A stretch of DNA of 64,000 bases from a phage. The stretch lies in NCBI GenBank assembly GCA_014913405.1, contig GCA_014913405.1_3931.1. The stretch is one strand, 5' to 3'. Below are positions 35,320 to 36,983 of this stretch, in pieces. The notes below the pieces were generated by a model. That model worked only from the letters and a program-made list of their open reading frames with translations, did no database searches and was not told where the DNA came from. Position 1 is the stretch's first letter, and every line of letters starts with the position of its first letter. The position numbers and the translations under genes are program-made.

Positions 35320-36983
35320 GCAGCGGGGCTAAATAGCCCCAGATACCTTAAAAGCTCCTTCTCATAGGGGCTTTTTTACGTCTATAAAGAGACTCTATAC
35401 AGTCCCTTTCCTTTCCTTCCTAGAATCTACCCCACTAATTCGATAGAGACTATCTCATACCTTAAAAAGCAATAACTCTATAGTCTACTCTATAACCTCT
35501 TATCAAATTAACTTAAATAAAAGCCCATAACCCGAAAGGGAAGGGCAACCACTAAAACGCTCTATAAAGCTCTATAACAGCCTTATCAACCTAACTTAAG
35601 CAATCATATTAACCCACTCTAAAAAGCCCTTTATAGAGCTTCCCAGAGCCTTAAAAGAATCTTATAAGGGTGTGAGCTTTATCATCTCGTTAGCTATCTT
35701 GTGAACTACTAAAAAGGGCTTGTTAGTGTCTTAAAAGTATGTTATAGGGGCTATAAAGTTACTTCAAAGTTACGTAAAAGAGGCTATAAAGTTACGTAAA
35801 TGCTAGCCCCCTTAACATTTTCTTAACAATTTCTTAACAATCCCTACATAGTTATGCTTTTAAGGCACTTGTTAGAGACTTGTTAGCCCCTTGTTAAATC
35901 TCTGTTAAGACCACGTAAAAGCCTTGTAAGAGTCTTTAGCATAGCCTTTAAAGCCTCTGTAAAGCCCTATAAAGAGGTGTCTGTATAGTTGGGGTGTAAT
36001 TACTAGGAAGAGACTTAAAAGAGCTTACAAGGAGCTATAGAGAGCTTTTAAGAGGGCTATTTAGAGAATCACTAAGAGGGAAAGGGAACGATAAGAAAAG
36101 AGATAGTGACCATGTTAATAGCTTGTTAAAAAGATTAAACACTTGTTAGGAACTTGTTAATTATCCCTACAAAATAACTCTTTAAAATTAACTTGTTAGC
36201 TCTCGTTAGTTATCTGTTAAGATTCTGTAAAGACTATTCAGCACTTGTTAGAAAACTGTTACAGCCTTGTTAGTTCTGTTAAGAATCTGTTAAGACTTTT
36301 GAAGAGTTGTTAAGAGCTTGAGAGAGTTGTTAAGAGATTGTTAAGGATATTTTAAAATTTTGCAAAGGGGATGTTACAGGGCTGTTAAGGGCTACCAAGC
36401 AGATATACATCTTCTACAGATATTTTTCAGTCCCTTCAAAGACCCTAAAAAATGACTTGATAGTCCTATTTTATAAAAATTTTAAAATTCTGAATAATTA
36501 CCTAGACAGTCTTTTAAAAATACAGGTAGAAACAGGCTTATAAGATACCTTGTTAGTACCGTGTTAGACCTTGTGAGATAAGGTCTGTAAAGATATTCCT
36601 GTTAAGTTTGTTAAAACAGTCTATATAGAGGCTTAGTAGTGCCTAGTGAACACCTATAGAGGGTAACATAGCTAACCTAGAGATTAAGAGGTGTATAGGA
36701 GCTTCTAAGAGGGTGTAGAGAGATGGTTAAGGTGATTGTATAGGTTGTTAAGAAGGCTTGTTAGAAGAGTGTTTAGAAGGGCTATACAGAGGGGCTATTA
36801 AGACCACTAGATAGATACTAAGATACTATATAGTACTATATAACTATATAGAGAGTAAGATTAAGAAGGTTGTTAAGAAGGGTAGATATTTTATTCACAT
36901 ATGATGGTGACCCAGCGGTTGGGACAACCGATAAATTTTATAAAAATTAAAAAGCCCCCGATTAAGGAGGCTCTTAAGATATT
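35320..36983. repeat. 1.6-kb non-coding segment dense in short reiterated motifs (TTGTTAAG/TTGTTAG, CTATAAAG, GTTACGTAAA)
   Basis: no ORF of 60 aa or more on either strand; more than 25 copies of (C)TTGTTA(A)G-like motifs; lies between convergent gene blocks. Confidence 0.6.
36954..36982 (-). terminator. rho-independent terminator for the - strand block
   Basis: on the - strand: AGCCTCC-TTAATC-GGGGGCT followed by TTTTT. Confidence 0.5.

Follow-up and report, generated by a model that had tools for sequence, protein, structure and literature searches.

A short-repeat array at the probable genome terminus of a Felixounavirus

Results

Mapping of the genome ends and of the terminal repeat

The 64-kb window analysed here, a stretch of 64,000 nucleotides of phage DNA (GenBank assembly GCA_014913405.1, contig GCA_014913405.1_3931.1), is from a Felixounavirus (Felix O1-like myophage), and carries at positions 35315-36983 a non-coding segment that is densely packed with the motif TGTTAR. 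A direct terminal repeat of 591 bp maps to 35806-36396, in the middle of this segment, with borders that are common to the exact end duplications of four relatives. Judging from these relatives, the segment is likely to be the genome-terminus (concatemer-junction) region, and the phage to package DNA of unit length whose two ends carry short exact direct repeats; for the identification of the terminus alone our confidence is higher still. The virion chromosome would start with 35806 as its base 1, and a copy of the repeat would be expected at both ends of the packaged DNA. A packaging or terminus role was among those offered in the original prediction, a reading of the letters made before any comparison, and the position of the repeat supports it.

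Searches with parts of the segment as queries revealed that some database records carry part of it twice, at the ends of the record. Exact terminal duplications were found in four records from different laboratories: ECP2307 (PP461118, 592 bp), vB_EcoM_D4 (PP886228, 581 bp), Pr103Blw (MW481326, 581 bp) and SPJ41 (ON868915, 613 bp). All four start with GCCCCCTTAACATTTTCTTAACAA and end with GTTAAGGGCTACC, which map to 35806 and 36396 of the window, and the first 24 and the last 13 nucleotides of the duplication are identical in the four records and in the window. There is no permutation: the borders are fixed and sequence-specific. Of the 255 matching records a spread sample of 60 was inspected, in which phages pEP20, H12, GE_vB_7A, ECOH1 and NJ12 also begin or finish at these borders. 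Record MW481326 annotates the stretch as a 'short direct terminal repeat region', and the Pr103Blw authors obtained the 581-bp repeat by means of PhageTerm (PMC8303462), which was likewise used by the authors of D4 (PMC11737134). Short terminal repeats have been reported for Felix O1 as well (PMC3185647).

The repeat of phage UAB_Phi87 (608 bp) was determined experimentally, by Bal31 sensitivity and run-off sequencing (PMC4837284). The homolog of 35806-36396 in UAB_Phi87 spans 614 bp, at 15152-15765 of record JN225449.1, and the SpeI sites around this locus predict terminal fragments of ~2751 and 4431 bp; the Bal31-sensitive SpeI fragments reported were of 2819 and 4322 bp (PMC4837284). The own ends of JN225449.1 would predict SpeI fragments of 1134 bp and >5.6 kb. 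The published end mapping fits the locus described here, and not the ends of the deposited record. The Felixounavirus/Ounavirinae repeats of UAB_Phi87 and Pr103Blw share with the present one the locus, the borders and the neighbour genes, and its size is within the 581-613-bp range. Nothing essential differs from the known Felixounavirus repeats, except that here a single copy is present, mid-sequence and not at the ends, the left-border sequence occurring once in the window. The genus was already known to carry short terminal repeats at this locus, so there is nothing new in the identity of the segment. The ends of Citrobacter phage BSwM KMM2 (OP902295.1) were also considered as a true repeat and were discarded as an assembly break, since their overlap is no longer than 64 bp and falls within the repeat. 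Assemblies of phages of this group seem to break commonly in the repeat region.

In virion order, the left end would consist of a repeat copy, the right non-coding flank (36397-36983) and the - strand genes, and the right end of the + strand genes, the left non-coding flank (35315-35805) and a repeat copy. In this order both terminal gene blocks would be transcribed towards the chromosome ends. In the window, both blocks are transcribed towards the terminal repeat, and their terminators stop ~0.4-0.55 kb short of it.

Coding content and relatives of the segment

Among the stretches of the window that lack an open reading frame (ORF) of at least 60 amino acids (aa), the segment, with 1669 bp, is the longest, as had been claimed for it; the next-longest gaps, of 908 and 782 bp, both lie in the tRNA cluster. 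This cluster, with 26 tRNA genes on the + strand at 46624-51835 (detected with ARAGORN) and a few small ORFs between them, explains the remaining ORF-poor stretches. Only two ORFs of at least 30 aa are present inside the segment, at 36035-36142 (- strand, 35 aa) and 36360-36455 (+ strand, 31 aa). An Rfam 15 scan of the segment assigned it to no family (best scores of 16-25 bits, against family thresholds of 47-77), sigma-70-like promoter sites in it are not enriched (7 vs 5.4 ± 2.7 expected), and the cumulative GC skew tracks gene orientation, with no separate signal at the segment.

The segment matches 257 phage records, 200 of them over the full length, with identities of 80-93%. Phages of Escherichia, Salmonella, Shigella and Citrobacter that belong to the genus Felixounavirus and its neighbours make up nearly all of them; the BLAST relatives are all Ounavirinae, and no Autographiviridae are among them. 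No consistent gene annotation of the segment exists among the matching records, a few of which label it 'repeat_region' or place tiny hypothetical proteins there. In 12 distinct relatives the homologous segment has no ORF of at least 60 aa; the longest has 53 aa and none is common to them, and one of the 12 segments lacks any ORF of at least 30 aa. Genes at this place in related phages, which would have spoken against a gene-free segment, were thus not found. The Felixounavirus terminal repeat described here is also present, at 88.6% identity, at 135884-136463 of GU169904.1 ('Staphylococcus phage SA1', 147 kb), which suggests that this record is a chimeric or contaminated deposit.

The TGTTAR array

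The segment contains 26 forward and 3 reverse copies of TGTTA[AG]. In 300 dinucleotide-preserving shuffles the motif was found 1.7 ± 1.3 times (maximum 6), which makes a ~15-fold excess, and the rest of the window has 1.4 copies per equal length. The pattern [CT]TNT[AT]AAG occurs 24 times in forward orientation, vs 2.6 ± 1.5 in the shuffles. The high density of short same-strand repeats, which the original prediction had noted, is therefore far above that of shuffled sequence. The other motifs that had been listed were recovered too, namely GTTACGTAAA twice (35769 and 35791), TTCTTAACAA twice (35821 and 35832) and CTATA[AG]AG seven times; the longer degenerate units, at ~35800-35940 and 36110-36350, are real but weak, with 62-78% identity between them.

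The terminal repeat holds 18 forward and 3 inverted TGTTAR sites, with a spacing of mostly 11 or ~22 bp. The three inverted copies of TTCTTAACAAT (YTAACA at 35812, 35823 and 35834; 35812-35840, - strand) are 11 bp apart and begin 6 bp inside the left border. Together with four forward CTTGTTAG/CTGTTAAG sites, also 11 bp apart (35870-35908, + strand), they form a head-to-head arrangement, the DNA dyad of which is weak (z = -1.35). A group of fourteen forward TGTTAR sites (36113-36388, + strand), mostly 11 or 20-22 bp apart, extends up to 8 bp from the right border, and between the four-site and the fourteen-site groups lies the purine-rich centre of the repeat, with three CTNTAAAG sites. The right-border block (36298-36409, + strand) comprises TTTTGCAAAGG at 36358-36368, the sequence GGGCTACC after which the cut would fall (36396), and AGATATACA at 36401-36409, just outside the repeat. 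Of the 25 neighbour spacings in the segment, 8 are exactly 11 bp and 5 are 20-22 bp. No DNA hairpins above background were detected at the repeat borders. A description of this organisation (invariant, phased TGTTAR sites, inverted at one border, together with border blocks that are conserved between genera and an inner flank of unusual conservation) was not found in the searchable literature, and nothing relevant was retrieved on the motif or on the transcriptome of Felix O1.

Conservation of the array and of the borders

In the 12 genomes compared, none of the 18 forward sites shows a change in the TGTTA core (100% conservation), and the adjoining positions are conserved at 82-93% (p ≤ 5e-5 in a permutation test that leaves out the bases used as the search pattern). 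Indels in the repeat and its flanks are mostly of 10-12, 21-23 or 32-33 bp, sizes that fit a gain or loss of entire units and agree with the range of repeat lengths among the relatives. Counting substitutions only, identity to the relatives is 90.1% in the left flank, 91.6% in the repeat and 96.4% in the right flank, and 85.3% in the genes next to the left flank and 89.8% in the other flanking genes.

The left flank, the repeat and the right flank are retained in Mooglevirus at 76-84%. In 29 records of Erwinia phages (Kolesnikvirus) the BLAST alignment is limited to positions 984-1095 of the query, i.e., 36298-36409 of the window. Erwinia phage M7 has an exact end duplication of 444 bp, with 5 inverted sites at the left and 11 forward sites towards the right; TTTTGCAAAGG is present, and AGATATACA lies just beyond the right border, as in the window. 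The layout is kept in M7 despite the poor alignment, hence the architecture outlasts the sequence. The comparative data demonstrate the placement of the ends and selection on the TGTTAR sites.

The non-coding flanks and their terminators

The + strand gene block ends in tandem hairpins at 35325-35377 (+ strand), predicted by RNA folding (-26.7 kcal/mol, z = -4.67; 0 of 200 shuffles fold as well). The first of these, at 35325-35340, is the hairpin of the original prediction, which is indeed present, although ~10 bp to the left of where it had been placed; the second, at 35350-35377, is a canonical intrinsic terminator, with six consecutive U after it. The terminator proposed for the - strand gene block was found by a terminator scan at 36950-36975 (- strand; fold z = -3.09).

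The left flank (35315-35805), which in the virion would be sub-terminal DNA inside the right-hand repeat copy, carries five forward CTCTATA motifs (35393-35570), plus CTATAAAG and CTTAAAAG. A hypervariable patch at 35400-35449, with 54% column conservation and alternative indels of 18-23 bp among the relatives, is bordered on both sides by sequence with at least 90% conservation. About four copies of the 11-bp unit AAAGTTACGTA (35755-35800, + strand) abut the left border from outside, and Tandem Repeats Finder assigned to them a period of 11 and 4.2 copies. Within these units the perfect palindrome TTACGTAA occurs twice (35770 and 35792), the second copy ending 6 bp before the predicted cut. 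The left-border junction, AAGTTACGTAAATGCTA|GCCCCC, is identical in four Felixounavirus genomes, and a TTACG element is retained in Erwinia phage M7.

The right flank (36397-36983) would in the virion adjoin the left-hand repeat copy on its inner side. No other part of the locus is as well conserved, with 79 records at 95-99% identity. The flank contains 7 more TGTTAR sites, three copies of TATAGAG and, 55-100 bp beyond the right border, an 84% A+T block (36450-36499) that is 99% conserved. Neither an ORF, nor an excess of promoters, nor an Rfam match was found at 36397-36949, and the RNA fold has a z of 0 to -1.

Outside the segment, a conserved element of ~70 bp is found between successive small + strand genes in at least 5 copies (29556-29620, 31105-31176, 31968-32049, 33191-33263 and 34994-35063). 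Each copy has a GC-rich hairpin, GGGGAGGGAATGACCTTCCCC, and after it ACTAAATAAAGTCCTTAAACTAGGAGATTCAAAATG; the hairpin lies directly 5' of the ribosome-binding site and start codon. Intergenic repeats of 39 and 57 bp are listed for Felix O1 (PMC3185647), and the ~70-bp elements are probably of the same family. The TGTTAR-type motif is not common to these upstream intergenic repeats.

The large terminase gene and its neighbour

The large terminase is encoded at 52265-53881 (Terminase_6N, 8.7e-43; Terminase_6C, 4.4e-33; PHROG 979). Directly upstream, at 52058-52258, lies a gene for an acidic protein of 66 aa that belongs to PHROG 4397 (unknown function), and a search of 5.8 billion proteins returned near-identical homologs only. 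PHROG and Pfam scans of the genes that flank the segment gave families of unknown function only.

Discussion

The array as a candidate packaging signal

The invariant core, the strand polarity and the helical spacing of the TGTTAR sites suggest that they are bound by a protein. We give roughly even chances to the proposal that they are protein-binding sites and that the array has a role in packaging; most likely the array would serve for recognition and assembly at the concatemer junction, when the genome is matured and packaged. The TGTTAR sites would be bound by a protein of the phage whose recognition function is like that of a small terminase; this protein would coat the single repeat copy present in replicative concatemers and place the large terminase so that it cuts at the two fixed borders. 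Duplication of the repeat would follow, so that each end of the packaged chromosome receives a copy, as is thought to occur in T7. After infection, the two copies could permit recombination or annealing into concatemers. The conserved flanks, the right one above all, probably belong to this recognition or initiation signal as well.

A more tentative version, which we regard as a minority possibility, is that the repeat of the Ounavirinae acts as a protein-coated ruler. The ~21 invariant TGTTAR sites, in 11-bp register and inverted at one border, would nucleate a filament or a wrapped complex whose edges set both cuts, and the array, rather than a single pac site, would be the packaging signal. 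The gain or loss of 11-bp units should then change the length of the repeat in quantised steps, as in the lengths of 581, 592 and 613 bp. If this were true, the terminus-binding protein would be the functional equivalent of a small terminase.

Comparison with known systems

The likeness to T7, already pointed out in the original prediction, holds when the T7 sequence is read directly, since its 160-bp terminal repeat has phased CCTAAAG arrays inside and on both sides. T7 (SRL/SRR) and the present phage share ends of fixed sequence and a short repeat that is present once per concatemer junction, as well as a same-strand motif of 7-8 bp in many copies, at roughly helical spacing, in and around the repeat. 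Taking as T7-like an array of at least 10 one-strand copies at ~11-13-bp spacing, the segment has 26 forward sites, with 11 bp as the modal spacing. In T7 the inner border of the repeat is critical, and here it is the most conserved one: T7 tolerates insertions at 99 and 118, but those at 142 and 162, where the left repeat has its inner border, are strongly deleterious. For the present locus the supplementary tables of PhageMaP cover genes of phage Bas63 only, and hold no intergenic insertions for this region. The differences are also clear. The motifs, CCTAAAG in T7 and TGTTAAG here, are unrelated; most copies lie outside the repeat in T7 and inside it here, and the inverted triple at one border is a feature of the present array. 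The early genes of T7 run inwards from promoters by the left repeat, whereas the terminal genes here run towards the ends, and T7, a podovirus, has an RNA polymerase of its own and a small terminase that is known. The resemblance is one of analogy, not of homology.

In the lambda cosB R sites, the P1 pac hexamers and the SPP1 pac boxes, copies of a short motif flank the cleavage site and assemble the recognition protein that positions the nuclease. The concept of repeated short motifs around a cleavage site is common to these systems and to the present array. In them, however, the ends are cohesive, or headful and permuted, with a single cut region, whereas here there would be two fixed cuts 591 bp apart with ~21 sites between them.

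Observations that weigh against the proposed reading

Several observations speak against the proposed terminus and packaging array. The window holds one copy of the repeat, and its ends are deduced from relatives that are 80-93% identical. The reported SpeI fragments of UAB_Phi87 are off the prediction by 68 and 109 bp, a mismatch that may come from an earlier version of the sequence. Record JN225449.1 has a different end duplication, of 542 bp (1-542 and 87062-87603), which lies in the tRNA cluster (window 50142-50683). We considered it as the terminal repeat of UAB_Phi87 and discarded it as an assembly overlap, because it is incompatible with the SpeI fragments of the paper and with the published genome size: 87,603 - 542 + 608 is 87,669, exactly that size. 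Fourier analysis at 10-11.5 bp gave no coherent long-range period and only a weak AA/TT peak at 11.25 bp, so that the phasing is to be taken as local. The 11-bp indel steps could arise from replication slippage alone, with no selection for phase. The 96% conservation of the ~550-bp non-coding right flank is not accounted for by the tests made. Finally, PHROG and Pfam scans recognised no small terminase, and no binder of the array was identified. The 66-aa protein encoded upstream of the large terminase would have been a candidate small terminase by its position; it is acidic and is predicted to form a two-helix hairpin with no helix-turn-helix (predicted local distance difference test, pLDDT, of 83), and was discarded as unlikely to bind DNA.

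Alternative explanations

The best-surviving alternative, which we nevertheless regard as unlikely, is a replication origin, in which the phased repeats would be iteron-like initiator sites and the A+T block at 36450-36499 the unwinding element; such an origin could coexist with a terminus. As in iteron origins, direct repeats in helical register, on the same strand, adjoin a strongly A+T-rich block that is 99% conserved, and the non-coding DNA is conserved above the level of genes. T7 has secondary origins near its ends. The units here are 11 bp long with a core of 5-7 bp, vs the 17-22 bp of usual iterons; there is a single DnaA box with 1 mismatch and no integration host factor (IHF) consensus, and the neighbour genes have no recognisable initiator or DNA-binding domain. 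The array is almost exactly confined between the physical ends, which is not required of an origin, and the cumulative GC skew adds no signal of its own. The iteron role, the first that had been put forward for this DNA, thus receives little support.

It is slightly less probable still that the sites serve for end protection or as a decoy, a protein on the tip sites shielding the DNA from exonucleases, controlling ejection or titrating a host factor. Since the sites lie within the repeat, ~21 of them would be found at each tip of every injected chromosome, to within 6-8 bp of each end, and ~0.5 kb of non-coding DNA would lie as a buffer between each repeat copy and the first gene. The related phage Bas63 has no RecBCD inhibitor, according to the authors of PhageMaP. 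No Chi site is near, the only one in the window being at 61453, and this explanation has neither a candidate binder nor a precedent in this phage group. Cross-genus conservation peaks at the inner (right) border and extends outside the repeat, which suits a cleavage signal better than a cap. The binding-site array of the original prediction is retained insofar as the sites are probably protein-binding; nothing points to the titration that had been proposed with it.

A transcriptional element, be it clustered promoters or terminators specific to the phage or an insulator between the convergent blocks, is improbable. The terminators of both blocks do lie at the segment edges, and CTATAAAG-type motifs may loosely recall A+T-rich phage late promoters. 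Yet the count of sigma-70-like sites is close to expectation, no correctly oriented gene lies downstream of the arrays, and no structured RNA or Rfam match was found in the segment; the edge terminators already insulate the two blocks, and ~1.5 kb would be left over. Decayed or mis-assembled coding DNA, i.e., frameshifted genes or repetitive junk, can be practically dismissed. A few depositors annotate tiny hypothetical proteins at the locus, but the 12 homologs share no ORF and none of them has one of at least 60 aa; moreover, conservation exceeds that of the genes on either side and falls above all on the motif cores.

Significance

Under the terminus reading, the window sequence would be a circular permutation of a linear genome whose chromosome starts at 35806, and the 591-bp repeat ought to be given at each end of the deposited sequence. 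Public records of Felixounavirus have in many cases been opened arbitrarily, and an assembly overlap such as that of the UAB_Phi87 record could be mistaken for the terminal repeat. Felix O1-type phages are widely used in Salmonella and Escherichia coli typing, biocontrol and therapy. The TGTTAR array, with its two conserved borders, constitutes a testable candidate packaging signal for these phages, and could serve as bait for the recognition protein, which may in turn help phage engineering and the production of transducing particles.

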